Assembly: GCA_963707025.1 (NCBI GenBank)
Contig: CAVPOM010000008.1
Span: forward strand, 64,001 to 128,000
Direction: 5' to 3'
Origin: an uncultured Verrucomicrobiae bacterium
GTDB taxonomy: Bacteria; Verrucomicrobiota; Verrucomicrobiia; Limisphaerales; Palsa-1400
DNA length: 64,000 bases
Shown: positions 1,426 through 18,959 of the stretch, piece after piece
How positions within the stretch are numbered: the first letter of the stretch is position 1
How the letters are laid out: every line of letters begins with the position of its first letter
Program-made: the position numbers and the translations under genes
The notes under the pieces: generated by a model
Databases searched by the model: none
Told to the model about the DNA's origin: nothing
The model's input: the letters and a program-made list of their open reading frames with translations, nothing else

Positions 1426-2820
1426 TCAATCTTCTGGGCGTTCGCCGCTGGGCGCCATCTTCACCAGCTTGGGATCGAATTGGCCGAGGGTCGTGACCAG
1501 GTCTTTTTGTGCGGCCATCACTTCGCGGATGTTTTTATAGGCCATCGGGACTTCATCCAGTCCGGCGCTAATGAGTGTCACGCCGCGTTCGCGGAGAAGA
1601 CGGTTCACTTCTTTCCAGTTGAATTTCTGGTTGGCGGCTTTGCGGCTCATGGCGCGGCCGGCGCCGTGCGAGGCCGAGTTGAGCGAATCGGGATTTCCCT
1701 TTCCGCTCACGACATATCCCGGCGACGCCATGGAACCGGGAATGATGCCCAGGACTCCCGCCCCCGCCGGCGTGGCGCCTTTGCGATGCACGACGACCTC
1801 CCGTTCCACTCCCCCGATAACGTGCTTTTCTTTCCAGGCGAAATTGTGATGGTTTTCCAAATCGAGCAAAACCTGCGCACCGAGGTTTTCCGCGATGTGC
1901 TGGTGGATGCAGGCGTGGTTGGCTGCGGCATATCGCCCCATCAGTTCCATCGCGTTCCAGTATTCTAGTCCGGGCTGCGAATCGAGCGACAGCCAGGCCA
2001 GCCGTTTCAATTCGCTGGGCAAGTCCGCAAATTGAGCGAACGCGATTTTGCTGTAGTAATCGCAAACCGCCGCGCCCGTCCCGCGACTGCCGCTGTGCGA
2101 CAGCAGCGCGACATAAGTTCCCGGCTCAAGGCTGCTGATTTTTGAGTGCGCTGTGAACAGGCCAAACTCGACAAAATGATTTCCGCTCCCGCTGGTGCCG
2201 AGTTGCGCCCACGCACGGTCCTTGTTCTGCTTCACCACCGGGCTGATCGTCCAATCCGCATCCATCACCTCGTGGGTGCGGCGATTCCGAAACGTCGAGC
2301 CGACGCCGAAGCGCGTTTCCGCTTCGATGGCGCGGGTCAGACGGTCCTGACTGTTCTCCAAATCGCGCGCCGGAATATCCAACACCGTCATTTTCATGCG
2401 GCAGGCAATGTCCACGCCGACGGCGTAAGGAATCACGGCGTTTTCCGTTGCCAGCACGCCGCCGATGGGCAGGCCGTAGCCGACGTGTGCGTCCGGCATG
2501 AGCGCCCCCGCCACGGAAACCGGCAGCAAACAAGCTTTCTCCATTTGCATCACCGCCTCGTGTTCCAGCCCTTCGCCCCACTGCCGGTATTTCACTGGAT
2601 CGGCGCGCAGTGGAGGCGGCGCAGCAAGCAACACCTTCGCGAATTCACCGCGCAGCGGGTCGCCCGCATACGCCGACGGATTGGCCACAATGGCAGCGAC
2701 TTCTTCGCGCAACCGCGACTTGTCGCCGCCACCGAGGATGAACTTGGCAACAAAATCCGTCGCCCGCCGCGTCGCCTCGCCCAGCGGCACACCCAGTCTG
2801 ATAAAATCCTTGGTGTTCAT
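1426..2820 (-). CDS. rtcB: RtcB family RNA ligase
   Basis: MPDAHVGYGLPIGG, GVDIACRM, GTSGSGNHFVE, HSGSRG, HRKGAT, SHGAGR motifs; start taken at MNTKDF. Confidence 0.95.
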   Translation of the reverse strand: MNTKDFIRLGVPLGEATRRATDFVAKFILGGGDKSRLREEVAAIVANPSAYAGDPLRGEFAKVLLAAPPPLRADPVKYRQWGEGLEHEAVMQMEKACLLPVSVAGALMPDAHVGYGLPIGGVLATENAVIPYAVGVDIACRMKMTVLDIPARDLENSQDRLTRAIEAETRFGVGSTFRNRRTHEVMDADWTISPVVKQNKDRAWAQLGTSGSGNHFVEFGLFTAHSKISSLEPGTYVALLSHSGSRGTGAAVCDYYSKIAFAQFADLPSELKRLAWLSLDSQPGLEYWNAMELMGRYAAANHACIHQHIAENLGAQVLLDLENHHNFAWKEKHVIGGVEREVVVHRKGATPAGAGVLGIIPGSMASPGYVVSGKGNPDSLNSASHGAGRAMSRKAANQKFNWKEVNRLLRERGVTLISAGLDEVPMAYKNIREVMAAQKDLVTTLGQFDPKLVKMAPSGERPED

Positions 2821-2950
2821 GTATGAAATCGCCTTTAAACTTAATCCTCCCTGTCCCGATGACGGTAATGGGCGCTGCCCATTCTCCTCCGCGTGAGAAA
2901 GAAGACTGTGACGTGGATTTGGATTGTGTTCGATTCTCTTATGTCCTAAA

Positions 2951-5900
2951 TTACTGCATCGCCTCTGCCAATTGTGTAAAGGCAACTACCTCCTTTGGTG
3001 ATGTCGCCGAACCGCTAAAAAACTGCATTGGAACGAGGTCATCCGTGACAAGCAACCCTTTGAATCGGATCGCCGTCGCCGGAATCCCAGTCAGGGCACA
3101 CACAGCTGACGGGTTCGCCTTTAGCCAGTTTAAACGGCGCAGATGTTTTCCGAGGGAGTCTTCTCGCTCTCCTCGGTAATCGTCCAAACGCTCAACAACG
3201 TCTCGAACGCTTATCGCTGTACGCAGGCGCTTACATTCAATGACAAATATATCTGGAGAGCCGCCTTTCCAGGCCAGCACATCAACGTCTCCAAAGTCCC
3301 CGGCAGATGCAGGGCACCCAAGGGCACTCATAAAAACCTCTCGCCGCGCAACGAATCCTAGTTTTTCCGCCCGATCCGCCACGTCACGCGTGAACTGGTT
3401 ACCTTGTCGGTTCGCCTGATCTCCACAAAATGCCCGCATCGTTCTTGTTCGAAAATGTTCCGTCGGGAATGCGGATTCAGCGATATTTCCTATGATGTAA
3501 GCCGCACTTGTTTTAACCAGTGGTGGATAAACGAGCCAGATCTTGCTGGGTGCGCCCCTCAACATGACGAATGGCCGCATCAGCAGAGACAGCTGACGGC
3601 GGAATCGCCACGGCTGAACGTCTTTTTCCTGGTATCCATGTAAATCTTTGTTCCAGCCGCGGCGGGGCGGCAGTGAGAATCGTCCGATGAAAAACTCAAT
3701 GGTCTTTGCATCCAAATTGCACTCGTTCATTAGTAATGAGCGGAAACTAGCATCGTCCAACTCAAGAATTAGCTTCTGCGTTTTCAAGGCTACATGGCCG
3801 AAGCGGTTGGGAATTGCAACGAACTGATCAATTGTCACCCCAAACTCATCATGGAATGGCTGCTCCATCCGGCGTATGGTTTCGAGACTACGAGCACTCT
3901 CTTTGGGTTGGTAACTTGAAAACCAGCGGTCGTAATTTTGTGCGGAAGAATGAAAGCCCTTTTCAAAAACCGCGCGAACGTAAGGCGACATGACTGTCGC
4001 GTAGAATTCCTTGTCAAAATCCAATTCGCCATTTTGGAAGGAATGGATCTCTGGCTCCATAAATCCCTCCGAGATTGCGTCTCGATGGTTGGCTGCGCTA
4101 AAAAGGTTCTCGAACTGGGCAAGCATCTCCAAACGTGCTGCTTTCGGCATTGCGTGGCCGCCTTCTGCTGGGCATGCGTACATTGCTGTTTCAACCAACA
4201 GGCGATTGGCCAGCGTTGCCGCGTCTCTGTCGCTTCGGCGCCCTTCTGCAAACTTCAAGATTTCTTGTGGGTCGTGCAGAGCAAGCAATGCGCGCGCCGC
4301 CAGACACCAACGCTGTTCGTCCTTTTCCAATTCGGCCAAGGCGGAGAAACACGCGATCACAACCTCTCGCCGATTGAACTGCGCAAGCCCCTTTTCGATT
4401 CTCTGCCAAAGGTTGTCCACGACTCGGTGCAAGTAATCCATGCATTGCTCTCTCCCTAAGCTTTTTCCACTTGCTGAGGGCGGTCCGAGTTCATCCGCCA
4501 GCTCGATCAGGCTATGAGAGCATTCCTCCTCTGGGATGAAGTCAGGCGAAGGCCGATATGTTGCAGCCAGAATTTGAGCCCAATTCTCCGTTTTTACAAA
4601 ATGAAAGAACCGAGCCTCATCATTTGGGAAGATTGAGGTTAATAATCTGACACGGTCGTCAGCCGATATTGTGCTGCCTGCCAATTCGGCTATTGCAGCG
4701 ATTGTGCAATCAATCAACATGCGCTCTGCTTGGTTCCTCGGAGTGTGGAACTTCTCGCTAAATTCTGCAGGCAGCGTAACGACGATCGTCCGGTCGCGCC
4801 GATTGACGGATGAGGTTGGCTGAGAGGAGACTTGAGAATTGGGAATATTTTGATCAGCCCATTTGGAAAGTTCCGGCACGTCTAATTCAATCAAGATTGA
4901 TCCGGCTTGAAGGTTTCGGAACTCTTTTTCGACCACGACACCAGCTCGGTTCATCCAATTGAGCAAACAGTCCCAGAGTTGGAACAAAACGCTTTGCTCG
5001 TCGGGTATCGTGGTGTTCGCTTTAGAAACAATCCACCAATTCCGATTTGTTGTTTCAATTACCCCCATTAGCATTTTCTGCTTAGATCCTTCAAGCGCAA
5101 TATACACTGGAGCCTCCTTGTCTCTGGCATAATAAGCCTTTGCTCCACGGCGTTCTACTCGAACCCAGTGCGTGAGATCATGCGCGAGAATGGAGTGGTC
5201 GTCGTAAGCGTGCAACACCTCCTTTCGAATATCCGCTATGAAGCCAGTTCCAACGGTTAGCATCTTGTGTGGCTGAGACAGCTCCATTTGCCGTGGCACG
5301 AAACGCCAATTATTGGAACGCCAATACGCGTAGAGATTCAGCGGACCGTTAAGGTTCATAATATGGACGCCACGTTTTTCAGCCCATTCTTGATGACGCC
5401 ACATTCTCCAGAGACGGAGGGCAGACATATCATCGCACCGGGCGAGCGTGCGCCAGTCTGGCGGAGAAGCAAAAATCAAGCCCCAGTCCGGTATTTTCTT
5501 CATAGAGAGCGCCACGCCACGTCCCACACCGCCACGCGTTATGAGTGTCATGCCTCCGTTGAACTGAGGCTGCGCTTTTAAAACCGCAGCGCAATCCAAT
5601 AAATGCCTTTCAAATGAATTTTGATGTTGTGCAGTTAACTCGTCGGTATCATGGGCATCGGTCAATTCTCCAGAAACATTGCCATCGAGTAAAACAACAT
5701 GGGCATATTTTCCTTGGTCAAAACTCAAGGTGGCTTGATAAATGGTCGGGAGTTCATTTGATGGTGAAGGAAGGGCAATGTCCATCGGTTCGAAGCCAAG
5801 GCCGTGTTCAAGCGTCCGCATCCACATTGCGAATTGGCTCGTATGTAGCAGCATTTCGAAACGGCGGAGGAAGTCCGTTTCATTCAGTTGTTCGACCAAA

Positions 5901-6723: not shown

Positions 6724-7308
6724 TCATTCCCGCACGAACAGCCTCCATTCTGGGATGCCGTGGGCGTTGCGAATGAGGGCCGTGGCCGGCAATTCCTTCG
6801 GCGCGCGCGGCACTGAGAGCAGCTTCAGGCCGGCTTCGTGCGGCAGGCGGTTGCCTTTGCGGGCGTTCACCTCCTTCCCGGCCCAAACCAGGTTGTCCCA
6901 GGCGTTCTTGCCACCGCGCGAGCGGGGTAGGACGTGATCCATGCTGCCTTCCTCGGGGCGCAGCACACGGCCGGTGTATTGGCAGCGGTTGCCGTCGCGC
7001 TCGCGAATGGCGCGGGCGCACAGCTTCGGGCGCTTCTTGGGCACCTTGGCGTAATTCACCGCCACGATCACCGTCGGCACGCGGATTGGACCGCGGACGG
7101 TTCGCACCGCATTGTCCTGCGGGCGCATGGGCAGCGTAATCCACTCGTCCCAGGAAACGGGACGAATGTGATTTTCCCCTTCGATTTCCAGGCCGGTCGC
7201 CACGTTCGTCGCCATCATGCAGAAGGCCTCCTGCGGCGTCCGGACGTTGACGGCCTGCCAGTTGCGGTTGAGCACCAGCACCATCGCTTTGTTCAGTATG
7301 TCGTTCAT
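6724..7308 (-). CDS. HNH endonuclease (McrA-like)
   Basis: VLVLNRNWQ...RDGNRCQYTG...DHVLPRSRGGKNAWDNLV...N. Confidence 0.9.
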   Translation of the reverse strand: MNDILNKAMVLVLNRNWQAVNVRTPQEAFCMMATNVATGLEIEGENHIRPVSWDEWITLPMRPQDNAVRTVRGPIRVPTVIVAVNYAKVPKKRPKLCARAIRERDGNRCQYTGRVLRPEEGSMDHVLPRSRGGKNAWDNLVWAGKEVNARKGNRLPHEAGLKLLSVPRAPKELPATALIRNAHGIPEWRLFVRE

Positions 7309-7347
7309 AAAAATGTCTGCATACGGCCACCGTGCTTGTCGCGGCGG

Positions 7348-7366
7348 GGTGTTTGTTCTTTGTTGA
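7348..7366. repeat. 19-bp inverted repeat, partner at 18267-18285
   Basis: ggtgtttgttctttgttga is the exact reverse complement of tcaacaaagaacaaacacc. Confidence 0.85.
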
Positions 7367-7502
7367 GGCATCCCCGGCGGCGAGATCGAGACGCTTCCTG
7401 AGCATCATTCCGTGTCCAGCCCAGACGAGCGTGCTTCCGGCTGGCCTTCGGCACGTTTTTCGCGCATTTTGGGATTGAAGCGTTCGAATTCTGGAGAAAA
7501 TC

Positions 7503-8278: not shown

Positions 8279-8353
8279 TGGCTGCCTCGCCCGGTTTTGC
8301 TCCAGGTCCTCCGGTGTCAGAGACCGGCGCGCTCCTGATTACGCCACGAGGCA
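8279..8353 (-). tRNA. tRNA-Gln(CUG)
   Basis: Cloverleaf; anticodon arm ccggt-ctCTGac-accgg; encoded CCA. Confidence 0.85.
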
Positions 8354-8388
8354 ATGGCCCGCCGAGCGGCAGCCCGGAGGGAGAAGAT

Positions 8389-8462
8389 TGGTCGCCCGGG
8401 GAGGTTCTGCCCCTCCGATTTCTGGGTGTAGGCCAGACGTGATGCTATTTCACCACCGGGCG
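8389..8462 (-). tRNA. tRNA-Val(UAC), C33
   Basis: tctgg-ccTACac-ccaga; encoded CCA. Confidence 0.75.
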
Positions 8463-8467
8463 GAAAT

Positions 8468-8542
8468 TGGCTGCGGGAGCCGGGTTCGCACCGACAACTG
8501 CGCTTTCAAAGAGCGCCGAGTTGCTGGTTACTCCATCCCGCA
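8468..8542 (-). tRNA. tRNA-Gln(UUG)
   Basis: gcgct-ctTTGaa-agcgc; CCA. Confidence 0.85.
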
Positions 8543-8548
8543 ACAAAA

Positions 8549-8625
8549 TGGTGGAGCCGGAGGTAGTTGCAACCTCACCATACCGGATTAAAAGTCCGGT
8601 GCCGGTCTTCTGTGGCATCAGCTCC
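8549..8625 (-). tRNA. tRNA-Lys(UUU)
   Basis: ccgga-ctTTTaa-tccgg; CCA. Confidence 0.85.
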
Positions 8626-8632
8626 AGGAAAT

Positions 8633-8653
8633 TGGTGCTCGCGGTGGGGCTTG
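8633..8653 (-). pseudogene. 3' remnant of a tRNA (part of T arm, acceptor strand, CCA)
   Basis: caagccccaccgcgagcacca directly upstream of tRNA-Lys, no 5' half. Confidence 0.55.
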
Positions 8654-8837
8654 GGAAACTCCAATAATCACCAAAGGGAAACCGGCGCGGCCGGCATCCC
8701 AGATTCCCTTTGCCTCCGTTTCCGATCCTGCGGGTGTTGGTAAATGTTGGAGTCGCGATTGCGCACCCGCGCACTGGCACTCAAGCGGCCTCTGCGCACA
8801 CAAGCCAGGCCGATTCCTTGAAAAGTTTTCAGTTAAA

Positions 8838-9602
8838 TTGCATCAAAAAAGCTGGCAAAATGGTGTCGTTCACCCTATATTTACACACATAAATGCATCA
8901 CCAGATGACATCCGAAAAGCGGCAGTGGCCGACGCTCGAAGGACGCTTGAGTCAGCCGCTCACTTCACGCGTGGAGGCGGTGCGCCAGCTCCAGACCACG
9001 ATGCCGATTACGCCTGTCGCGCAGGCCGTGTTGAAGCGGAGCAACGGCACCTCATCCAATGGGCCAAAGAAAACGGGAAACTAGGCTCAAGCGGTCGGTT
9101 GCCGCCCGTGTTTGCTCAGGGTGGAGAGCATGATGTCTTTTTTCAAAAATGCACCCAGCGGTATCTCAAGGCGACACGGCAGGATCGACACAAGGGATAC
9201 GGCATTGCCCTCGGTTCGCACACGCACGGTGCAACCCCTGCCGAGTATCTCGACCGTCTCTTCCTTCAGAACTGCATTTTCGATGATGATATTCGGCTTG
9301 AGCGCGTCGTGCAGAACGATGGCAAACCCATAATTATCACATCCCAACCAGCCATCAAAGGAAGCACCCCACGGCAAGACGGACTGGACGAATTGATGAT
9401 CGGGAAGGGCTACGAAAAACTGGCAGAAGGGGCTTATTACGATGAAGGGGCCGGCCTATTGCTGTACGACCTTTTCCCTCGCAACGCCATCCAAGCTGCC
9501 GACGGACATATTTATCCCATTGATCCCGTCATCCAACGCATTACGCCGGACTTTGGGCAGTTTTTGCGGCATGAGCCTTACACGATCGACCTCCCCCGCT
9601 AA
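8838..9602 (+). CDS. Polyvalent-protein-type kinase domain protein (start uncertain)
   Basis: GGEHDV, ATPAEYLDRLFLQNCIFDDDIRL, DLFPRNA...IDPVI resemble the Kinase-PolyVal family. Confidence 0.7.
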   Translation: MHQKSWQNGVVHPIFTHINASPDDIRKAAVADARRTLESAAHFTRGGGAPAPDHDADYACRAGRVEAEQRHLIQWAKENGKLGSSGRLPPVFAQGGEHDVFFQKCTQRYLKATRQDRHKGYGIALGSHTHGATPAEYLDRLFLQNCIFDDDIRLERVVQNDGKPIIITSQPAIKGSTPRQDGLDELMIGKGYEKLAEGAYYDEGAGLLLYDLFPRNAIQAADGHIYPIDPVIQRITPDFGQFLRHEPYTIDLPR

Positions 9603-9744
9603 ACCCTTCATGCTGCGCACTCGTCTGCGGATTGGGCAAGCGGACTTATTGCGTCCGACTTATTGCGTCACCTTCCGCAATGATAATCGGGTCCGGTAAC
9701 GCCCAGGAACCCGACGCTCATCTAGCGTGACGCTGTGGATAAAA

Positions 9745-9768
9745 CTGCTCACTTTGAGCTACATGCGC
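9745..9768 (-). pseudogene. 5' remnant of a tRNA (acceptor strand and part of D arm)
   Basis: gcgcatg-tagctcaaagtgagcag then the cloverleaf breaks off. Confidence 0.55.
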
Positions 9769-9773
9769 GAAAA

Positions 9774-9865
9774 TGGCGGAATGCCGTGGACTTGCACCAC
9801 ACTCCTGTTTCCAGGAGCGCACTGTTTAGCGAACAGGCCCGGGCCCCTCGTCCGGTTGGCATTCC
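9774..9865 (-). tRNA. tRNA-Ser(GCU)
   Basis: Loop tcGCTaa, long variable arm ctcctg-gaaa-caggag, GCCA end. Confidence 0.8.
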
Positions 9866-9869
9866 AGAT

Positions 9870-9953
9870 TGGTCGGCGTGGGGAGACTTGCACTCCCAAG
9901 GCTGTTCGATCTTGAGTCGAACCGGTCTGCTATTCCCGATTAACCACACGCCG
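9870..9953 (-). tRNA. tRNA-Leu(CAA), atypical fold
   Basis: ttcga-ctCAAga-tcgaa; ACCA; extended acceptor-D connector, short variable region. Confidence 0.75.
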
Positions 9954-9954
9954 G

Positions 9955-10036
9955 TCGGCGACCCGGGACTTGCACCCGGAAGGCTCGGCGATTTTAAGTC
10001 GCCGGGGTCTGCTGTTCCCGCTGAAGCCAGTCGCCG
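9955..10036 (-). tRNA. tRNA-Leu(UAA), atypical fold, no full CCA
   Basis: ggcga-ctTAAaa-tcgcc; abuts the next tRNA. Confidence 0.75.
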
Positions 10037-10041
10037 TAAAA

Positions 10042-10125
10042 TGGTGGGCATGAAGGGACTTGCACCCCCAAGGCTGCCAGATTCTGAGTCTGGACCCTCT
10101 GCTGTTCGGGTTAAACCACATGCCC
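10042..10125 (-). tRNA. tRNA-Leu(CAG), atypical fold
   Basis: ccaga-ctCAGaa-tctgg; ACCA. Confidence 0.75.
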
Positions 10126-10132
10126 GTGAAAT

Positions 10133-10209
10133 TGGCAATCCCGGAAGGACTCTCACCCTCATCTCCGACGTTTCGAAGCGTCGCGCTCTGCTCATTGAGC
10201 TACGGGAGC
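10133..10209 (-). tRNA. tRNA-Arg(UCG), 8-nt loop as sequenced
   Basis: cgacg-ctTCGaaa-cgtcg; GCCA. Confidence 0.7.
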
Positions 10210-10281
10210 GTTGAAATTGGCGGTCGTGCTCCAGCGCCTGCGAATCGCTTTTTGCCCGAAAGCTTGAGACGATGCAGGCGT

Positions 10282-11110
10282 ATGAAGAAAACAGTTCTGA
10301 TCACGGGAGCGTCCTCCGGTATTGGCCAGGCGGCGGCCAAGGTATTTGCAGGCAACGACTGGAACGTCATTGCCACCATGCGCCAGCCGGCGGCGGATTC
10401 GGAATTGGCCCGCCTGCCTGGCGTATTGGTCACATGCCTGGATGTGCAGGATCGAGAGAGCATTGACGCGGCCGTTGCGGACGGTGTTGAGCGGTTCGGC
10501 CGGATCGACGCCTTGATTAACAACGCAGGATTCAGTCTGTTCGGCGTCTTCGAGGCGATTTCCCGCGAAAAGATTCAAGAACAATTCGACGTCAACGTCT
10601 TCGGTGTGATGGACGTTCACGCGGGCGCTGTTGCCGCATTTCCGGCGGAACAGGAGCGGCTTGATTATCAACATCAGTTCGCGCGCGGGGCTGGTCGGCC
10701 TGCCCATGATTTCGCTCTATTGCGCGGGCAAATATGCGCTGGAAGGGTTTTCCGAGGCGCTGGCTTACGAACTGGCGTCGCAGAACATCGTCATCAAGGT
10801 TGTCGAACCTAGCGGCGGCGTCACCGGCACCAGCTTCTCCCAGAGGATGGCCCAGGAAAAGACTGCCGGCACCCTGCCCGCCGATTACGACGATTTTATT
10901 GCCCGCACCAGCGCGATTTTCGCCACCATGCAGGCGGCCCGGAAAACCACCGCAGACGACGTGGCCCGCGTTATCTATGAGGCCGCGACGGACGGATCGA
11001 GCCGGTTTCGCTATTTCATCGGCGAGGACGTTGGAGACTTCGTCCAAGCGAAGCGCGAGAAATCCGACCAGGACTACATTCATTTCATGCGCGCGCGCTT
11101 TTCCTCTTGA
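10282..11110 (+). CDS. SDR family oxidoreductase (frameshift near 10620)
   Basis: TGASSGIG, NNAG, YCAGK motifs split across two frames. Confidence 0.85.
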
Positions 11111-11117
11111 CTGGAAA

Positions 11118-11192
11118 TGGTGGGTTGCCGCGGAATTGCACCGCGTTCTCGCCGGTTAAGAGCCGGGACTTCACTGTAAAAGTTTGCAACCC
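11118..11192 (-). tRNA. tRNA-Lys(CUU)
   Basis: cccgg-ctCTTaa-ccggc; ACCA. Confidence 0.8.
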
Positions 11193-11193
11193 A

Positions 11194-11267
11194 GACGCGA
11201 CACGAAGGCGGAGTTGAACCGCCGCAGCCAGGTCTGTGATGCCCTGGCCGGCGCCGGTGTTCGCGTC
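11194..11267 (-). ncRNA. tRNA-like structured RNA with canonical T arm, no CCA
   Basis: Terminal stem gacgcga/tcgcgtc, hairpin gccagg/cctggc, T arm ggcgg-ttcaact-ccgcc. Confidence 0.5.
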
Positions 11268-11278
11268 GCGAAAGTATC

Positions 11279-11372
11279 CCCAAGCACGCTGAATCTGGCG
11301 TTTGGCCAGATGGCCGTGCGCAAGCACCTTCGACCGTGCGGAGTCTCTGCCGGCAGGCCAGATTCACTTGGG
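11279..11372 (-). ncRNA. Putative structured small RNA
   Basis: Closing stem cccaag-tgaatctggc / gccagattca-cttggg. Confidence 0.4.
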
Positions 11373-11375
11373 AAA

Positions 11376-11466
11376 TGGTCGGGCATCAGGGTAACGCGCC
11401 CTGTATTCCGGTTTGGAAGGCGTTTGCACGCGGCCATCAGCGTGTTTCTCTCAACACCTATGCCCG
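11376..11466 (-). tRNA. tRNA-Gly(UCC)-like with ~16-nt insertion in the anticodon stem
   Basis: cgggcat/atgcccg ACCA, loop ctTCCaa, 91 nt long. Confidence 0.55.
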
Positions 11467-11522
11467 GAGAAATGGAATTAATCGTCGTTGTTGGTTTTCT
11501 CAAAAGACGCAACAATCCAGCC

Positions 11523-12269
11523 ATGACGATTCCGGCTGAATTGGTCCAACGTCTTGCCACTGCCAAAAGCGTGACCGTGCTCACAGGCGCTGGCGTATCC
11601 GCGGAAAGCGGCGTCCCCACCTTTCGCGATGCCCAAACCGGCCTGTGGGCCAAATACAGTCCCGAAGAACTGGCCACTCCGCGCGCCTTCCGACGCAATC
11701 CCCGCCTCGTTTGGGAGTGGTATGAGTGGCGGCGGAAGCTTGTCGCCGGCGCCAAACCAAACCCAGCGCACTTCGCCTTGGTGGAAATGGAGGGCCTCTT
11801 TCTGCGGTTCCATCTCATTACGCAAAACGTGGACGGTCTTCATCAACGCGCCGGAAGCCGGCACGTCATCGAGCTGCACGGCAATATCACGCGCACGAAA
11901 TGCTCCGACGAAAGCACGATTGTTTCGAGTTGGAAAGACACGGGTGACGTCCCGCCGAAATGTTCGGCCTGTGGCGGCCTGTTGCGCCCCGATGTGGTTT
12001 GGTTCGAAGAGCCGATGCCGGAAGAGGAGATGCAAGAGGCCATGACGGCGAGCACGCATTGCGACTTCTTCTTCTCCATTGGGACATCCACCGTTGTTTA
12101 TCCGGCGGCCGCCCTGCCATCGGAGGCATTGCGCAGCGGAGCGACCGTGGTGGAGATCAATCCGCAACCCACACCATTCACGCCGCAGGCGCATTTGGCT
12201 CTGGCTGGGGCGGCCGGGGTTGTGTTGCCCGAATTGGTGAGGGCTATCAGCGCCTCGCGCCGCTTTTGA
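11523..12269 (+). CDS. cobB: NAD-dependent protein deacylase (sirtuin)
   Basis: TGAGVSAESGVPTFRD, ITQNVDGLH, ELHG, RPDVVWF. Confidence 0.9.
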   Translation: MTIPAELVQRLATAKSVTVLTGAGVSAESGVPTFRDAQTGLWAKYSPEELATPRAFRRNPRLVWEWYEWRRKLVAGAKPNPAHFALVEMEGLFLRFHLITQNVDGLHQRAGSRHVIELHGNITRTKCSDESTIVSSWKDTGDVPPKCSACGGLLRPDVVWFEEPMPEEEMQEAMTASTHCDFFFSIGTSTVVYPAAALPSEALRSGATVVEINPQPTPFTPQAHLALAGAAGVVLPELVRAISASRRF

Positions 12270-12272
12270 AAA

Positions 12273-12347
12273 TGGAATCCCGCGTGGGGGGCGCACCCAC
12301 TTTTGCGGCTTTGCAGGCCGCCGCCTGAGCTGTTCGGCCAACGGGAC
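12273..12347 (-). tRNA. tRNA-Cys(GCA)
   Basis: gcggc-ctGCAaa-gccgc; U73 CCA. Confidence 0.85.
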
Positions 12348-12352
12348 GCATT

Positions 12353-13099
12353 TCAGATTTCGACGACCAATGAAGGATTAAACCCTTTGCAGCGCTCATC
12401 CGGGTAGCCCAGTTGATTTGTCAGGATACGGGTTGACCCCATCACGTAGTCCACGTTGTAATGCGTGTGTCCGTGGATCCAGAGAGGAACGCCACTCTGT
12501 TCGACCAACGAGTCCAAGTCGGAAGCAAACGCCGCTTTAAGTGGACTGTCCGCGTGATAGAGCGCTTCTGACCGGGCACTCGGTGCATGATGCGTCACAA
12601 CGATGGTGCGGGCGCGATCACATTTGGCCAGCGCGCGGCGCAGCCAGGCGACAGATTCCGCGTGCAATCTGGCGGTGTCACATGCGCGCAGCCTGCGATT
12701 TTCTGTGCTGAACTGAACGATGCCGTAGTCGCTCATGATGGCCTCAGCTACGCGCATCGATCCATCCAGATCGTCACCCAACTGAAAATCTGTCCATAAG
12801 GTGCATCCCAAGAACGTGTAGCCGTTGATTTCCACGGCGTCGTTCTCCAGCAGATGGATGTTGCTGCCATCTGTTTCTCGTTTCAGGGTTTCGGTCAGCT
12901 CGGGCAAGGAGTGGCGATAGAACTCGTGGTTTCCTAAAACGTAAATGACCGGCTTGGCGAAGAATTGATTTCTCGCCCAGATACGCCCTTCGCGGCCAAG
13001 ATGAACGTCACCCGCCAACACCACGACATCCGCGTCGGTCACGGGGATTTTGACTGCTCCGAATTCAAAGTGCAGATCGGCCAAAATGTGTAAACGCAT
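12353..13099 (-). CDS. Metallophosphoesterase
   Basis: DLH, GD, GNHE, HH, HGHTH motifs. Confidence 0.9.
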   Translation of the reverse strand: MRLHILADLHFEFGAVKIPVTDADVVVLAGDVHLGREGRIWARNQFFAKPVIYVLGNHEFYRHSLPELTETLKRETDGSNIHLLENDAVEINGYTFLGCTLWTDFQLGDDLDGSMRVAEAIMSDYGIVQFSTENRRLRACDTARLHAESVAWLRRALAKCDRARTIVVTHHAPSARSEALYHADSPLKAAFASDLDSLVEQSGVPLWIHGHTHYNVDYVMGSTRILTNQLGYPDERCKGFNPSLVVEI

Positions 13100-13198
13100 A
13101 GGTAACTTTATGTTAGGTGAAAATTGGTTAGGAGTTCAAAGTGCGGGCGGAAGCTTCCGCCTCCGCCCGCGTTGTTCCTGGCGTCCTTGAACCGTTCG

Positions 13199-14906
13199 CT
13201 ATTCGCGAACAAAGTCCGCAATGACGGCTGGCACCGTCGTGTCGAAGCCGACCACGTCCAGCATGCCCGCGGTCGTTTGGGTCGGCGAGGGTGAAGCCGT
13301 TGGAGGTCATGCCCACAACGACCGCCTTCGCGTCGCCGACGAACTCGTCGCGATACTGGCGCAGGGCCTGGGCCGGATGGATGTTGCCCGCCCACGTCTC
13401 GCTGTCCGTATAGGTGATAAACGCCGACACGTTCAGCTTGTTGCGGGCGGCCCACACCATCGGCAGGGCGCAATCCGTGCCACCCATTGGGATGGCTTCG
13501 ATGCGCTTGATGACGTCGGCCAATCTCATGCGCGGCGAGAGGTTCACACGGGTGATGCCCGGTTCGCCGCCGCCGTGCATGCCACCGTAACCACCGCCCG
13601 CCGGAGCCGAGAACGCGATGATCTCGCATTCCGGTTCGGTTGCGGCCGTGATCAGTGCCATCGCCGCGCTGGCTTCGCGGGCCGAGATGCACGAACCCGC
13701 GATCATGGAACCATCCATCGAGCCGCTTACGTCAAGCGCGAGCAGCACCGGCTTGTTGCACGGTTCCACGTTCTGGAACGTCGCGTAAAACGCTTCGTCC
13801 AGCGCGTCCACCACCGCCGACACCGGCGACCACGCAAGCGAACCCTTGTCGCCGTGACCCTGGGCGTAGACCTTCTGCGCCACAAGGACCGCCAGCGGGT
13901 GGATGCGCGCACGCTTGAGCGCCATCTCGTCCTGCAGCTTGCGGACGATCAATCGCTTGGAGTCGCTGAACGGAGCCAGCAGACCGAGGCTCGTCATCTT
14001 GCCGAGGTTGCGGATCATCGCCGTCATCGGCATACGTTCCAGCAAGGCCTCCCACACAACGACTTCATTGAGCCACTGCGTTGGGATGGCTTCGCGCGGC
14101 AGGTCGAACTCGTTGATGATCTTCACGATCTCGTCCGCGCTCAATGCGCGCTTGGCCCGCTCGAAGGCTTCGATGAGCTTCGGCAGTGCGCCGACCGGGC
14201 CATACTTCGCGACACGGTCTTCACCGCGCACTCTGCGCTTCACTTCGCGTTCACCCAACGAATCCGCATGGGAAGCGGAACCTCCGCACAGCAACCAGCG
14301 GAACACCGATTCGTGCTGGGCCGACGGAGCCTTTGGGTGAGCAAGGCGAAGAAGGTCGCCGTGCGACCAACCGTCGCGTTGCTGGTACTTGACCGCCTGG
14401 TGCGCAAGATCATCGGCATCGCGGTAAACATACCAGTCGCCAACGGCGTTGCGCAGGCCACGGCCCCAGCCGCGCATGGCATTGACGTATTCGGCGAAGT
14501 GGAACAAGTGCGTGCCAATGCGGCAGACCTTGTTCAGGCTCGCAAACGCGAGCGCCTTCGCCTGGGCATCACCATGCGTGACGGCCAGCGCGAGGGCGAA
14601 GATGGCCGGATCGTTCTTGGGCGCGCGTCCGGCATCGCTGATCTCAACGATGCGGTTGACGGCACGGACTCCGTCGGCCCTGATGCAGCGGAGAATCGCC
14701 TCGTGGTTCTGCTTCACGAGATCGCGTTCCGCGATGTAATACGTGCCTCCTTCGGCGCCGAGGACGAGGAAACGGTCGAGCCGCGTCCAGTCATCCACTT
14801 CCCACGAGAAGCCGCCGCCCGAATTGCGAACCTGGTTCGCGCCCGGGATCGGCTGCGACTGCGGGGTGATGCGGCGATTAAACTGACGTGCGTAATTGAT
14901 AGCCAT
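13199..14906 (-). CDS. rsr: TROVE-domain Ro60 orthologue (frameshift near C-terminus)
   Basis: RLDRFLVLGAEGGTYY, KYQQRDGWSHGDLLRLAHP, vWA DVSGSM; tail MLDVVGFD lies in another frame. Confidence 0.95.
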
Positions 14907-14965
14907 GGTGGCCTCCTTCTTGTGAGCGTGCCGCCAACTTCCGGCACGGGTTTTCTATCGGTTAA

Positions 14966-15033
14966 ACTGCGGACAAGTTGGTGAACGTGGGATGGTCATT
15001 CGTAGTGATAACCCATGTTCTTCGGCCCGCAGT
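14966..15033 (-). ncRNA. Minimal Y RNA (Ro-binding stem only)
   Basis: gcgggccga...cttgtccgc stem and gggttatc motif shared with the other five copies. Confidence 0.7.
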
Positions 15034-15047
15034 CAATGGGCTTGCGA

Positions 15048-15295
15048 TTATTCGCGGAAAAAAGTGATTCCTCAGAGCGCCGTCATATCGTCCGGAGCGG
15101 AGGCAGCATTTCTTAAAAGCTGCGTCCGGAGCCGCATGGGCAGAGGTCGTTCCGCCCCAGCTTTTCGCTGAGTTCCTTATTCCCGTGAACGAGGCGCACG
15201 CCGCGTTTGACGTTCGTTTCGGACGGGAAGCCCTTGCGGCGTTTGCTGGTGATTTCGAAACTGGCGTCTTCATGATCATGTGTGTTGTTTGCCAT
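15048..15295 (-). CDS. SEC-C motif protein (two homopolymer frameshifts)
   Basis: [15 protein letters not shown] continuing KKCC in a shifted frame. Confidence 0.8.
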
Positions 15296-15357
15296 ACGGC
15301 CTCCTCGTTTGAGTATTGCGGTTGAAACATCGTGGCCCGCGCCACGATGAGATAGCG

Positions 15358-15465
15358 GATGGGCAAGGGACGACCCGGGAATTGCTCTATCCACTGAGCT
15401 ACTCCTCGTTGCCGAGGAGACTGGATTCGAACCAATGACCGATAACCCGATGTCTTCGGCCCATC
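15358..15465 (-). ncRNA. Y RNA (YrlA-like)
   Basis: gggccga/ttgccc Ro stem; permuted tRNA domain with T arm ttcgaat, closed acceptor stem and D arm. Confidence 0.85.
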
Positions 15466-15473
15466 AAATTGAA

Positions 15474-15598
15474 AGCGGGCAAGAAAGCGACCGTGGAATT
15501 GCCCAGCGTGCTGCCTTTACACCACTGCGGAACGCTCCGCGGGACGGAATTGAACCGCCGCTGCCGGGTTATCGAGAACCCACAATTTACGGCCCGCT
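15474..15598 (-). ncRNA. Y RNA (YrlA-like)
   Basis: Ro stem; T arm ggcgg-ttcaatt-ccgtc, closed acceptor, D arm. Confidence 0.8.
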
Positions 15599-15607
15599 GA
15601 AAGGGAC

Positions 15608-15736
15608 CGACGGATAAGAAACGAACTGGGAATTTACGTGCTCTACCCCTGAGCTACCCCGGCATTGGAGCCGGAGGCGGGACTCGAACCCGCAACCTCG
15701 TCGTTATCAGCGATAACCCAATCCTGCGACCCGTCG
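15608..15736 (-). ncRNA. Y RNA (YrlA-like)
   Basis: Ro stem; T arm gcggg-ttcgagt-cccgc, D arm tagctcaggggtagagc. Confidence 0.85.
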
Positions 15737-15745
15737 AAAAAGCCG

Positions 15746-15859
15746 CGACGGACAAAGAGCGATATGGGAAACAATCGGTCGCCCGATTGCGCGGGGTTCG
15801 AACCCGCTCATCCCGCAGTGCGGAACTTTTCCAGATAACCCATGATCAACGACCCGTCG
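15746..15859 (-). ncRNA. Y RNA variant
   Basis: Ro stem, gggttatc motif, T arm gcggg-ttcgaac-cccgc. Confidence 0.7.
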
Positions 15860-15866
15860 GAAAAAC

Positions 15867-16004
15867 TCGATGGACAAGTGCTGCCGCAGATAGGGATTCG
15901 CAAGCGGGAATCGAACCCGCGTCACCAAACTCACGTTCGGCGGCTCTCTCACGGTGAGCAACCACCCCTGTTGGAGCGATAACCTGCAACATTCGGCCCA
16001 TCGA
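15867..16004 (-). ncRNA. Y RNA variant
   Basis: gatgggccga/cttgtccatc stem, ggttatc motif, T arm gcggg-ttcgatt-cccgc. Confidence 0.7.
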
Positions 16005-16007
16005 AAT

Positions 16008-16083
16008 TGGTCAGGAAGCCGGGATTTGCACCCGGACCGTCGCGTTCACAACGCGGAATGCTGCTGTTACACCACAATCCTGA
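16008..16083 (-). tRNA. tRNA-His(GUG), A73 with U at -1
   Basis: ccgcg-ttGTGaa-cgcga; ACCA. Confidence 0.75.
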
Positions 16084-16090
16084 TTTGAAA

Positions 16091-16166
16091 TGGAGCCCCT
16101 GGTCGGACTCGCACCGACGAATACGAGTTTACGAAACTCGCCCTGTGGCTGCTGAGGCACAGGGGC
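16091..16166 (-). tRNA. tRNA-Thr(CGU)
   Basis: cgagt-ttCGTaa-actcg; CCA. Confidence 0.85.
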
Positions 16167-16170
16167 ACAA

Positions 16171-16248
16171 TGGTGTCCACGGCAGGAATCGCGCCTGCGA
16201 CCTCCACCTTCGCGCGGTGGCGCTCTGATCTAACTGAGCTACGCGGAC
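16171..16248 (-). tRNA. tRNA-Arg(GCG) (identity tentative)
   Basis: ccacc-gcGCGaa-ggtgg; ACCA. Confidence 0.65.
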
Positions 16249-16251
16249 AAT

Positions 16252-16329
16252 TGGCATCCGTGATCGGACTTTCACCGATTAGGCCCGGCTTGAAAGACCG
16301 GCTGCTCGATCTGCTTTGCATTCACGGAC
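16252..16329 (-). tRNA. tRNA-Glu(UUC)
   Basis: ccggt-ctTTCaa-gccgg; GCCA. Confidence 0.85.
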
Positions 16330-16333
16330 AGGA

Positions 16334-16409
16334 TGGCCGCTGGAGTCGGAATTGCGCCGACACTTCCTGTGCTTCAAGCAGGTGTGCAGACTGACTACAC
16401 CATCCAGCG
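16334..16409 (-). tRNA. tRNA-Phe(GAA)
   Basis: cctgc-ttGAAgc-acagg; CCA. Confidence 0.7.
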
Positions 16410-16417
16410 GGCAAAGC

Positions 16418-16636
16418 GGTGCGCGGCAGCTTGGGTCAGCTACCTTGAAGGGCTGTCTAAGAAGCTTGAGCCTTGCGGGCTGCGGCTTGCATTTTGAACG
16501 AGCTGACCGATGTGGTTTGACAACTCGGCATCAACATCAGCAGGTAATTGGATTTTCGGTCCAATAAGGAACGTTTAGAGCGCTCCAGATTTTGACAGCG
16601 TGCTCCATCGGCGGCATTCCGCCACCACCGCGCACC
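16418..16636 (-). ncRNA. Putative ~220-nt structured RNA downstream of the DIP1984-family gene
   Basis: Closing stem ggtgcgcgg/ccgcgcacc, inner ggtcagct/agctgacc stem, repeated CAA motifs. Confidence 0.55.
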
Positions 16637-16658
16637 TGAATCAGAACCGCTGGCGGAA

Positions 16659-17105
16659 TCAAGGATTCACGCTGCGGGTGAAGTTGAACTCGTCCAGCGC
16701 ATCTTGCAGCGACTGAATTTCGGCGTTCAACTCGGTGACAAGTTTGTCCACGTCCACCTTGCCGAGCTGGGCGACATATTCGACCTCGTAGCTTGCATCG
16801 GCAAAACCGCGTCCTTCGTGGAAAACGCCGGCCTTGGTGTCCAGCGCGTTCAACGTGGTGGCCAGACCCTTGAGTTCCGCCAGCCGGAAAATCCGGTCGT
16901 AGATTTCCACGTTGGCGGCCGCGACGGCGGCCTTGACCTTGACCAATTCGTCGAGCTTAACGCGCAGGCGCGTCAAGACTTCGCGATTGTCGTAGTCGAA
17001 CTTCTGTTTAGTGGAACGGGAGTTTTGTTTGGTGAGCAGATCCTTCAACTGGGCGACTTCGCCGGCCAGTTGGTTTTTCATTTTAAGTGCTTTGGCGATT
17101 TTCAT
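16659..17105 (-). CDS. DIP1984-family coiled-coil protein
   Basis: MKIAKALKMKNQL...LQDALDEFN pattern typical of the family. Confidence 0.7.
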   Translation of the reverse strand: MKIAKALKMKNQLAGEVAQLKDLLTKQNSRSTKQKFDYDNREVLTRLRVKLDELVKVKAAVAAANVEIYDRIFRLAELKGLATTLNALDTKAGVFHEGRGFADASYEVEYVAQLGKVDVDKLVTELNAEIQSLQDALDEFNFTRSVNP

Positions 17106-17146
17106 TGGATACCTTTCATTGGTTGCGTGTGTTTGATCGAATGAGT

Positions 17147-17220
17147 TGGTCGTCCCGGCAGGTAACGCTCCTGCTTCTTCCGGTTATCGACCGGAGGCTC
17201 TGCTTTTGAGCTACGAGACG
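17147..17220 (-). tRNA. tRNA-Ile(GAU)
   Basis: tccgg-tcGATaa-ccgga; ACCA. Confidence 0.8.
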
Positions 17221-17230
17221 GTGGTTAATT

Positions 17231-17323
17231 GAGGCTTCACGCCAAAACGATGCGCGGGGCGGAACACAAGATTGAGCTTCGTGGTCGGGCGGATTCGAAT
17301 GCCACGTTTTGGCTTGTAGCTTC
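17231..17323 (-). ncRNA. Putative structured small RNA
   Basis: gaagct..gccaaaacg / cgttttggc..agcctc stem enclosing ttcgaatcc. Confidence 0.4.
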
Positions 17324-17394
17324 GACGAAAAGGGCATTGACTTTGATGCCGCATTATGGGTTTCACGGGATTTCCTTTCGTTGAGGGTTAAAAC

Positions 17395-17481
17395 TGGCGG
17401 ATGGTGTAGGGATCGCACCCACGCAGCCCGCAGGCTCACTCGGTTTTCAGGACCGGGGCATTACTTCTCTGCCAACCATCC
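17395..17481 (-). tRNA. tRNA-Ser(UGA)
   Basis: Loop ccTGAaa, long variable arm, GCCA. Confidence 0.8.
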
Positions 17482-17489
17482 GTACAAAT

Positions 17490-17563
17490 TGGCTGCCAGA
17501 CTTGGACTCGCACCAAGACAAGCGGCTTAACAGGCCACCGTGCTACTTTGACACCACCTGGCA
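17490..17563 (-). tRNA. tRNA-Asn(GUU)
   Basis: gtggc-ctGTTaa-gccgc; GCCA. Confidence 0.85.
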
Positions 17564-17564
17564 A

Positions 17565-17640
17565 TGGCGCTGCCGGCAGGATTCTCACCTGCATCTATCC
17601 GCTTAGAAGACGGATGCCTGATTTGTTCGGCCACGGCAGC
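17565..17640 (-). tRNA. tRNA-Arg(UCU)
   Basis: tccgt-ctTCTaa-gcgga; GCCA. Confidence 0.85.
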
Positions 17641-17647
17641 GTTGAAA

Positions 17648-17723
17648 TGGTCGGAATGGCAGGATTTTCACCTGCGGCCTCCCGGTCCCAAGCCGGGTGC
17701 TCTAAAGACTGAGCTACATTCCG
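17648..17723 (-). tRNA. tRNA-Pro(UGG)
   Basis: cccgg-ctTGGga-ccggg; C1-G72, A73. Confidence 0.85.
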
Positions 17724-17730
17724 TGAAAAA

Positions 17731-17806
17731 TGGCGGACCCGAAGGGAGTTGCACCCTCAACCCTCCCGCAGACAACGGGGCGCTCTGCTGATTGAGCTAC
17801 GGATCC
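17731..17806 (-). tRNA. tRNA-Asp(GUC)
   Basis: ccccg-ttGTCtg-cggga; GCCA. Confidence 0.8.
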
Positions 17807-17810
17807 GAAA

Positions 17811-17898
17811 TGGTGGGAAGTGCTGGTAATGCTCCAGTCGTCGCTTCCGACATGTTTTGAGACGTCCGGGTTACGGCCGGATTGCCGGATCACTTCCC
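17811..17898 (-). tRNA. tRNA-Tyr(GUA) lacking a canonical D arm
   Basis: 8-bp acceptor gggaagtg/cacttccc ACCA, tccgg-ccGTAac-ccgga, large variable region, 4-bp T stem. Confidence 0.65.
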
Positions 17899-17904
17899 TG
17901 AGAT

Positions 17905-17977
17905 TGGTAGCGGGGGTGGGAGTTGCGCCCACGGAGGCTGAGCTTATGGGGCTCGCCTGAATCTCATTCTCCCCGCA
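17905..17977 (-). tRNA. tRNA-Met(CAU), initiator-like acceptor, short D arm
   Basis: gagc-ccCATaa-gctc; 1:72 mismatch, gcgggg acceptor. Confidence 0.7.
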
Positions 17978-17983
17978 GTGAAA

Positions 17984-18058
17984 TGGTGGAGTCGGTGGGT
18001 AGCGCGCCCACATCAACCTGCTTGCAGGGCAGGTGCATTGCTTGTCTGCCACGACCCC
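17984..18058 (-). tRNA. tRNA-Ala(UGC)
   Basis: cctgc-ccTGCaa-gcagg; G3:U70. Confidence 0.85.
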
Positions 18059-18064
18059 GGAAAA

Positions 18065-18136
18065 TGGCAGGCTGCCTCCGTGCTGCCCGGAGTAAGCTGA
18101 GTTTTGGAGACTCGGCCGCGTGCTGACGCTCAGCCT
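18065..18136 (-). tRNA. tRNA-Trp(CCA), short D arm
   Basis: gagt-ctCCAaa-actc; G73 CCA. Confidence 0.75.
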
Positions 18137-18145
18137 GTGCATGAA

Positions 18146-18220
18146 TGGTGCGGCTGCCGGGAGTTGCGCCCGGACTTCCTCCATGGCGAGGAGATATTCT
18201 GCTGCTTAAATCACAGCCGC
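18146..18220 (-). tRNA. tRNA-Gly(GCC)
   Basis: tctcc-tcGCCat-ggagg; ACCA. Confidence 0.8.
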
Positions 18221-18221
18221 G

Positions 18222-18258
18222 AAAGTAAAAGGGCCGGGAGCGTTCAGGCTCCCGGCCC
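18222..18258 (-). terminator. Terminator-like hairpin between leader RNA and first tRNA
   Basis: gggccgggagc-ctgaac-gctcccggccc followed by ttttactt. Confidence 0.6.
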
Positions 18259-18266
18259 ATGCCATT

Positions 18267-18518
18267 TCAACAAAGAACAAACACCTCTTGGTGATCTATG
18301 CGATCCCAACCCGCGGTTTCACGGCGGCTGTTTCGGTGTTTAGGGGCACACCTCCTGCGAAGCCCTTGATATGTAAATCTAAAATTCGTCTCGCTCGTCT
18401 TGATGACGCTGTCTTCCGGTCATGGGCAGACCCCACCGGTGAGGCTTCTCTGCTCGTCCTCGCCAAATTCAAGTTGTCGCCAGAAGACATCACCTGGATG
18501 TCGCTTTGTTCTTGTTCA
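18267..18518 (-). ncRNA. Putative ~250-nt structured leader RNA
   Basis: Ends pair (aacaagaacaaa / tttgttctttgtt); several internal hairpins. Confidence 0.5.
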
Positions 18519-18567
18519 CAGATTGTCCGTCTTTCGTCGTCACTCGTTCACATTCATGGTGTTCAGG

Positions 18568-18606
18568 AAAAATAAAAAACCCTGCTTGCATTTCGGCAAG
18601 CAGGGT
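18568..18606 (-). terminator. Attenuator intrinsic terminator
   Basis: accctgcttgc-cgaaat-gcaagcagggt then tttttattttt. Confidence 0.85.
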
Positions 18607-18628
18607 GGAAAAAATTCTGTTTCGTTCG

Positions 18629-18799
18629 TTACCTGCTTGCCATGAGTCTATCCAACTTGACCTGTTGTTCCGACGCGGTCCTGGATAGGCTAAGGCTAAA
18701 CACACTACCCGGGTTATACCGGCTATGACGTGTCCCAATGGTCATTGGGGCCGTCGTAATCGGCCAACTCGTGGCTGATATGTTTAAGCAAGTTTTCAT
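18629..18799 (-). CDS. Putative attenuator leader peptide (56 aa)
   Basis: MKTCLNISATSWPITTAPMTIGTRHSRYNPGSVFSLSLSRTASEQQVKLDRLMASR*; begins just after the promoter; last codons form the antiterminator strand. Confidence 0.7.
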   Translation of the reverse strand: MKTCLNISATSWPITTAPMTIGTRHSRYNPGSVFSLSLSRTASEQQVKLDRLMASR

Positions 18800-18812
18800 T
18801 GAACTTATGCGA

Positions 18813-18841
18813 AAGCTATCATGGCGTGTTCATGTCGTCAA
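18813..18841 (-). promoter_or_regulatory. Sigma70-type promoter
   Basis: TTGACG-17 nt-TAGCTT with extended -10 TG and AT-rich upstream tract. Confidence 0.7.
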
Positions 18842-18959
18842 CTACTATTTGAAAATATTTTGAGATTTATTTATTTCTCTCGAATTCAAGTATCGGATTA
18901 GTTGATTTGAGATTCTGCGGCAGCGTCAATCGGGAATCAAATACCACTCGTGACTGCGA

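Follow-up and report, generated by a model that had tools for sequence, protein, structure and literature searches.

A short leader kept complete for all 20 amino acids probably governs a spare tRNA array in Verrucomicrobiota

In transcription attenuators of the trp, his, thr and ilv type, codons for one, two or three amino acids recur in runs, and the position of the ribosome on the leader determines whether the antiterminator or the terminator is formed. Upstream open reading frames (uORFs) with broader responses have also been described. The closest tested precedent for the locus reported here is the uORF of whiB7/wblC, which senses drugs and the lack of many amino acids; in Mycobacterium smegmatis it encodes every amino acid except Cys, and removing its Trp or His codons reduced or removed the corresponding response (PMC10274678; this and the other published systems are compared by description, from excerpts of the papers). 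Similarly, the toiL uORF of E. coli topAI-yjhQ senses several antibiotics and reports stalls at several positions (PMC12121999). Here we describe a leader in a 64,000-nucleotide (nt) stretch of DNA from an uncultured Verrucomicrobiae bacterium (contig CAVPOM010000008.1; hereafter the window, to which all coordinates refer), where a short open reading frame (ORF) on the minus strand ends at a terminator that precedes an array of tRNA genes. The leader is likely a ribosome-read transcription attenuator that samples all 20 amino acids and turns on clustered genes for spare tRNAs, Y RNA and Ro60; the probable trigger is a ribosome stalled because the tRNA of almost any one amino acid is short.

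Like the whiB7 uORF, the verrucomicrobial leader combines a long, residue-diverse reading frame with an intrinsic terminator and an antiterminator. In contrast, as far as the excerpts of PMC10274678 describe them, whiB7 uORFs are not kept complete (that of M. tuberculosis is without several residues), are enriched in Ala and act on a transcription factor, whereas the completeness of the verrucomicrobial leader is conserved and its target is a tRNA array; its Ala content is 8.2%. The first-pass annotation of the window had contrasted this breadth of sensing with classical attenuators, and the contrast with the one-amino-acid type stands, but whiB7 provides a precedent for a broad uORF. The classical leaders also have a 5′ helix that competes for the antiterminator strand. 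They differ in their control codons: the verrucomicrobial leader has no control-codon run, each residue occurs about once over some 50 codons, and when positions 18230-18850 were compared with Rfam, no leader, riboswitch, T-box or GOLLD family was matched at either the gathering or the E-value threshold. The toiL uORF, by comparison, has eight codons, is antibiotic-driven and uses Rho-dependent termination inside topAI, and amino-acid sampling is not described in the excerpts of PMC12121999.

Long tRNA arrays have been noted in Verrucomicrobia (PMC8421152), and the locus fits such an array, with many clustered extra tRNA genes and RNA-processing genes nearby. It resembles the Anabaena trn operon, a silent spare tRNA array that is induced by translation stress and with which rtcB is co-regulated, although in Anabaena control is exerted by the repressor TrcR at promoter repeats (PMC8421152, PMC10272220). 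The Salmonella rsr-yrlBA-rtcBA operon likewise combines Ro60, Y RNA and RtcB and is induced by tRNA damage, but its signal is a tRNA fragment bound by the CARF protein RtcR (PMC7790460). The strings 'leader' and 'attenuat' have 0 occurrences in the main text of PMC8421152, and a literature search, with most subscription papers and supplements outside its scope, found no leader attenuator on tRNA genes and no leader with all 20 amino acids, the relevant systems being whiB7 and toiL. What is new relative to known uORF attenuators is the selection for amino-acid completeness together with the tRNA array as target.

The leader promoter was assigned because it is conserved across homologues; a consensus promoter scan of the window did not have it among the listed sites. 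Its boxes lie 17 nt apart, with 13 nt between the -10 box and the ATG, and promoter, gap and 56-codon ORF are all found where the first-pass annotation had placed them. The distance from -10 box to ATG is 12-13 nt in 92 of 155 distinct leaders (collected as described below), and a Shine-Dalgarno-like motif is present in just 3 of the 155, a scarcity that suggests near-leaderless translation initiation. A recount of the window ORF agrees with the earlier tally: it uses 42 distinct codons, none more than four times, and encodes every one of the 20 amino acids. Uniform codon use gives a mean of 36.8 distinct codons, close to the 37 first quoted, with P(≥42) = 0.023 and P(all 20) = 0.083, and the corresponding values relative to windows of long genome ORFs are 0.0001 and 0.028. 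Taken alone, the window copy is thus suggestive, just weakly beyond chance, and the case rests on homologues. Seven rare codons had been reported as present and seven common ones as absent, which is true of the window copy, but the absence is not conserved: among 58 representative leaders, 42 contain CTG, 50 contain GGC and 43 contain GAG, and the idea that leaders are built to avoid common codons was rejected. Across the leader set, GCT, CCT, TCT, ACT and GTT codons are scarce, and GGT and CGT are common.

Homologous leaders were collected in a close and a wide set. The leader region was matched in 34 of 61 genomes and in 23 of 30 within the family. Among 40 close loci fetched, two were without the 5′ part and two ran off a contig end, leaving 36 complete copies. 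In all 36 the ORF is open from its start through the antiterminator, so that a conserved ORF with its 3′ end overlapping the antiterminator, which the first-pass annotation had proposed to look for, was found in every complete close copy. These ORFs span 49-58 codons and shift in length by whole codons, and 26 of the 36 encode all 20 amino acids. The wide search was anchored on a conserved motif 3′ of the terminator, independent of the leader, and returned at least 304 loci. Of these 304, 171 gave a leader and 14 were without the anchor; in 94 the DNA did not extend far enough upstream, and the other 25 yielded no leader by the rules applied. After dropping duplicates and three truncated cases, 155 distinct leaders of 44-84 codons were left, the named records being mostly Verrucomicrobiota of several orders. 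Leader starts were picked without regard to residue content, on the basis of promoter score, with a bonus where the usual N-terminal pattern was present. The exact anchor pattern occurred in 0 of 400 other genomes drawn across the phylum (only 2 from the same order); either the locus is patchy or the pattern was too strict.

Completeness was the rule among these leaders, with 20 residue types in 123 of the 155, 19 in 28, 18 in 3 and 17 in 1, against a chance expectation of 12.8 complete leaders. The excess persists at low similarity: about 19 of 26 leaders below 40% identity are complete versus 2.4 expected, as are 41 of the 58 representatives (<60% identity) versus 4.2 predicted by the pooled residue composition of these leaders. 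Read in its five other frames, the same DNA is complete in only 4, 23, 18, 5 and 1 of 155 cases, and downstream DNA, used as a control, in 2, 7 and 2 of 140. Trp occurs exactly once in 48 of the 58 representatives, and internal Met is missing in 2 versus 12.7 expected. Completeness also accompanies the tRNA genes: a tRNA lies within 900 nt of the anchor in 116 of 132 leaders, and 97 of these 116 are complete, compared with 5 of the 16 without such a tRNA.

As a fixed functional peptide could mimic completeness, tests based on residue position were also run. Permutation of alignment columns gave 14.9±2.9 complete leaders (maximum 26 in 2000), whereas 47 of 67 are observed. Where main-lineage leaders are without the usual Trp, all 16 carry Trp elsewhere, while a second Trp is found in 12 of the other 97. 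In a comparison of 60 disjoint pairs, a residue was less prone to change where it was the only copy than where several copies of it were present (odds ratio 0.29, a value somewhat biased by newly gained copies), and when a sole copy has changed the partner has the residue elsewhere in 66 of 88 instances, as against 141 of 771 (pairs counted from both sides). Peptides from different orders are barely alike, yet completeness and stop-to-terminator geometry are kept. On this comparative evidence, completeness is held by selection on content, not sequence, and the leaders demonstrate selection that keeps each amino acid at least once within the predicted sensing window. Selection for breadth, which had been proposed from the window copy, is borne out by the homologues far more strongly than that copy could show.

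It is improbable that the leader is instead an antibiotic-sensing attenuator of the toiL/vmlR kind, in which the sensing stalls would occur either at the start codon region or on a peptide motif specific to the drug, and residue breadth would be incidental. In 23 of 30 loci examined, an MFS pump follows a terminator of the same family and geometry, the leader N-terminus is conserved in the main lineage, and antibiotics that act on translation induce the Anabaena array (PMC10272220). However, pump leaders are complete in 0 of 22 distinct cases and average 17.1 residue types versus 16.6 expected, while 11 of 16 array leaders of at most 50 codons are complete, a control made imperfect by the average lengths of 42 codons for pump and 48 for array leaders. 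Furthermore, the position-free rescue of Trp and other residues is not predicted by antibiotic sensing, and no peptide motif is common to leaders across orders. The pump attenuators (L056-L060, L307-L329), with leaders of 29-51 codons before the MFS transporter, occur in many genomes of the order.

Very little weight can be given to the idea that the ORF encodes a functional small protein, or that the released leader RNA acts in trans, with the overlap with the terminator secondary. Although the dN/dS of 0.54 and the strong leader fold (z -4.87 in the window copy; mean z -2.5 in 40 homologues) would suit such a role, the leader peptide has no Pfam family, its best ESM Atlas hit scores 0.86 with none at or above 0.9, and completeness and geometry outlast the peptide sequence between orders.

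Conservation of the RNA structure agrees with attenuation by a translating ribosome. As first reported, the 10 nt at 18641-18632 are perfectly complementary to the 5′ side of the terminator hairpin. In 50 aligned leaders, 96.2% of antiterminator cells are paired, with 2 pairs changed on both sides, and 97.6% of terminator cells; two-sided changes are few within the main lineage, and between lineages differing terminator arms have matching antiterminators. The trp/his-type attenuator geometry put forward for the window copy is supported by this 96% pairing and by the conserved overlap of ORF and antiterminator in 36 of 36 close copies. A 5′ helix, missed by the first-pass annotation as was a second conserved element (see below), is paired in 98% of alignment cells, and codon 3, which lies in it, is ACY in all 95 of the leaders that begin M-x-Thr-Cys/Tyr; among the other Thr codons, 207 of 614 are ACY. 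One further helix of the leader alignment is 86% paired.

The nascent RNA was folded in an equilibrium model with an assumed ribosome footprint of -15 to +13 of the A site. The modelled antiterminator forms with P≥0.88 when the ribosome is at codons 1-50 and P≤0.25 from codon 52, and 26 homologues give a similar sensing window. A ribosome near the stop masks the antiterminator in this model and a stalled one does not, and the earlier proposal that a stall at nearly any codon would free it holds for codons 1-50. Sole-copy residues make up just 2-5% of each of the final six codon positions but 36% of the seventh from the end, in agreement with the modelled masking, although the pairing constraint on the last codons contributes to their shortage of sole copies. 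Without the masked last codons, 103 of the 123 complete leaders are still complete, versus 46.9 when blocks are removed elsewhere. A ligand- or protein-controlled RNA switch, or TrcR-like promoter control through an upstream DNA motif, is highly unlikely as the sole explanation, for despite the conserved 5′ helix, the conserved upstream motif (a possible regulator site, whose loose pattern matches 49 of 155 leaders) and the repressor control described for the Anabaena array (PMC10272220), completeness specific to the reading frame and to the ribosome-reportable window counts against a passive ORF, and promoter control may operate in addition to attenuation.

In the proposed attenuation mechanism, RNA polymerase would start just before the AUG with a ribosome trailing it. 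When all aminoacyl-tRNAs are available, the ribosome would reach the last six codons and cover the antiterminator strand, allowing the terminator to fold and transcription to stop. A stall in codons 1 to ~50 would instead leave the antiterminator to pair with the terminator 5′ arm, and polymerase is predicted to read on into the spare array with its Y RNA and Ro60 genes. Because each residue is kept at least once within the sensing window, any amino-acid shortage could trip the switch, whether through starvation, failed charging or tRNA cleavage, and ribosome-targeting drugs might do so too; the spare tRNAs would then relieve the shortage. ORF conservation, register and residue selection come from the comparison of homologues; we infer translation of the leader, termination when the ribosome keeps pace and read-through when it stalls. 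Such a switch would invert classical attenuation, using one codon per amino acid rather than many codons for one, would provide a protein-free answer to how silent tRNA arrays outside cyanobacteria are switched on, and would let the supply of tRNA feed back on the genes that encode it. Sharp codon-by-codon predictions follow from it, and a short ORF with all 20 residues that ends at a terminator offers a searchable signature for translation-stress regulons.

Several points weigh against this mechanism. Among the 155 leaders, 32 are missing one, two or three residues, Tyr being the one most frequently absent (9), and the 25 loci with enough upstream DNA yielded no leader under the rules used; these include some stand-alone motif copies, a leader with 18 types (L099) and one that looks frameshifted (L119), and because cases of the last two kinds fell among the excluded loci the complete fraction is slightly flattered. 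The sequences are kin, and their counts are not independent trials. The dN/dS given above indicates some constraint on the peptide itself, and the excess of distinct codons over uniform synonymous choice, given the amino-acid sequence, is modest (mean z 1.15 in all leaders and 0.69 in representatives). The folding model, which is limited to equilibrium and to an assumed footprint, gives read-through even without a ribosome (0.99) and so does not account for the conserved 5′ helix. This helix, in the place of the classical 1:2 helix, is predicted to form while the terminator arm is still to be transcribed and again once the transcript is complete (P 0.89), but at intermediate lengths the antiterminator outcompetes it. 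Finally, Prosthecobacter-type leaders have their antiterminator ~15 nt before the stop, and in the model a ribosome that has arrived at the stop codon leaves it exposed once more.

Sensing of any amino acid is, from the leader sequences, better supported than sensing of any tRNA. The leaders cover 35.1 decoding classes of 45 versus 32.9 expected, the window copy misses 6, and 56 codons leave room for 20 residues but hardly for 45 decoding classes, suggesting that isoacceptor breadth is modestly favoured but far from complete. The original claim that the leader surveys nearly any tRNA therefore holds for the selection of all 20 amino acids, but synonymous diversity is just modest. It is possible, though we lean against it, that the leader evolved as a monitor of decoding by the whole tRNA pool under tRNA-destroying attack (anticodon nucleases, toxins, phage conflict), with nearly any tRNA loss releasing the full spare set of structurally altered tRNAs and repair enzymes. 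If true, bacteria and phages would have in common a general way of controlling tRNA genes through a ribosome-read leader, possibly reached by convergence. Of four viral contigs with the anchor, three carry a complete leader (L180, L181, L183), and among cultured strains Chthoniobacter flavus Ellin428 (L138) has a complete leader with 20 residue types.

Table 1 Features of the leader and its neighbourhood in the window.
Feature	Position	Strand	Remarks
Upstream DNA motif, short imperfect repeats	18882..18906	-	From alignment; possible regulator site; 1-nt deletion here relative to consensus
Promoter, sigma-70-type	18813..18841	-	-35 TTGACG 18841-18836, -10 TAGCTT 18818-18813; predicted start, near-leaderless transcript
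Leader ORF	18629..18799	-	56 codons, ATG 18799 to TAA 18629; modelled sensing window codons 1-50
5′ strand pairing with antiterminator strand	18786..18793	-	Codons 3-5; anti-antiterminator-like helix; from fold and consensus fold
Antiterminator strand	18632..18641	-	Last codons of the ORF; 10 pairs
Intrinsic terminator hairpin and U tract	18568..18606	-	Hairpin 18606-18579
Second ORF, after terminator	18296..18493	-	65 codons; open in main lineage, mostly absent in other orders
Structured motif ending in presumed boxA-like sequence	18271..18355	-	Conserved; search anchor
Second G+C hairpin, weak U tail	18231..18258	-	Just before first tRNA; terminator or processing site
Spare tRNA array	8279..18220	-	Broken up by protein genes, some on + strand
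Y-RNA-like genes	16004-15364	-	Within array
Ro60/Rsr	13128..14906	-	TROVE and vWA domains
Calcineurin-like phosphoesterase	12353..13099	-	
HNH nuclease	6724..7371	-	After array
RtcB RNA ligase ORF	1426..2985	-	Same strand, ~16 kb downstream of leader

The second conserved element lies beyond the terminator (Table 1). Its ORF is in frame and at least 60 codons long in 71 of 80 cases, and an ORF of at least 40 codons is found in 28 of 52 representatives; in the main lineage it starts inside a hairpin and stops shortly before the boxA-like site. A role for this ORF as another all-amino-acid sampler was unsupported, with 16 residue types here and 14-20 among those of at least 20 codons. The structured motif has no Rfam family, and the sequence at its 3′ end, which we take to be boxA-like, is present in 134 of 155 leaders. 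The 3′ motif also occurs alone, without leader or tRNA calls, at several sites in two related genomes (G009, G022; L042-L051), and these stand-alone copies are possibly mobile or recombination-linked. Two copies (L021, L013) carry a 63-nt palindromic insertion at the same site inside the conserved motif.

The array looks spare because 55 further ARAGORN tRNA calls are dispersed outside both this array and a second copy of leader and array on contig C2. Across homologous arrays the tRNAs cover all 20 amino acids, and in most tRNAs of the window array (18220-8279) the T loop starts TGC or TGA, not TTC. The vWA match of Ro60 ends at residue 547, having covered the profile to position 146 of 165, and the sequence beyond seems to have left the reading frame, as a frameshift or an assembly error would cause. 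The gene for RtcB, which had been counted as part of the locus, is not adjacent to it; an RF-1-domain protein and a D-Tyr-tRNA deacylase are also encoded downstream, beyond the array. At one homologous locus (L038) a protein that is RtcB-like by eye directly follows the leader in place of tRNAs.

RNA contigs of four runs, from relatives, cover the leader, two pieces spanning the terminator (with 5 and 14 other letters), and have zero cover over 18848-18924; as contigs give no ends, strand or level, they were not used as evidence. Ordinary attenuation is also seen in the same genome, where a Val-rich leader with 13 residue types (G000:C4:774999, minus strand) precedes a gene that is presumably acetolactate-synthase-like, and a 36-codon leader with 18 residue types is found at G000:C3:256764 (minus strand).
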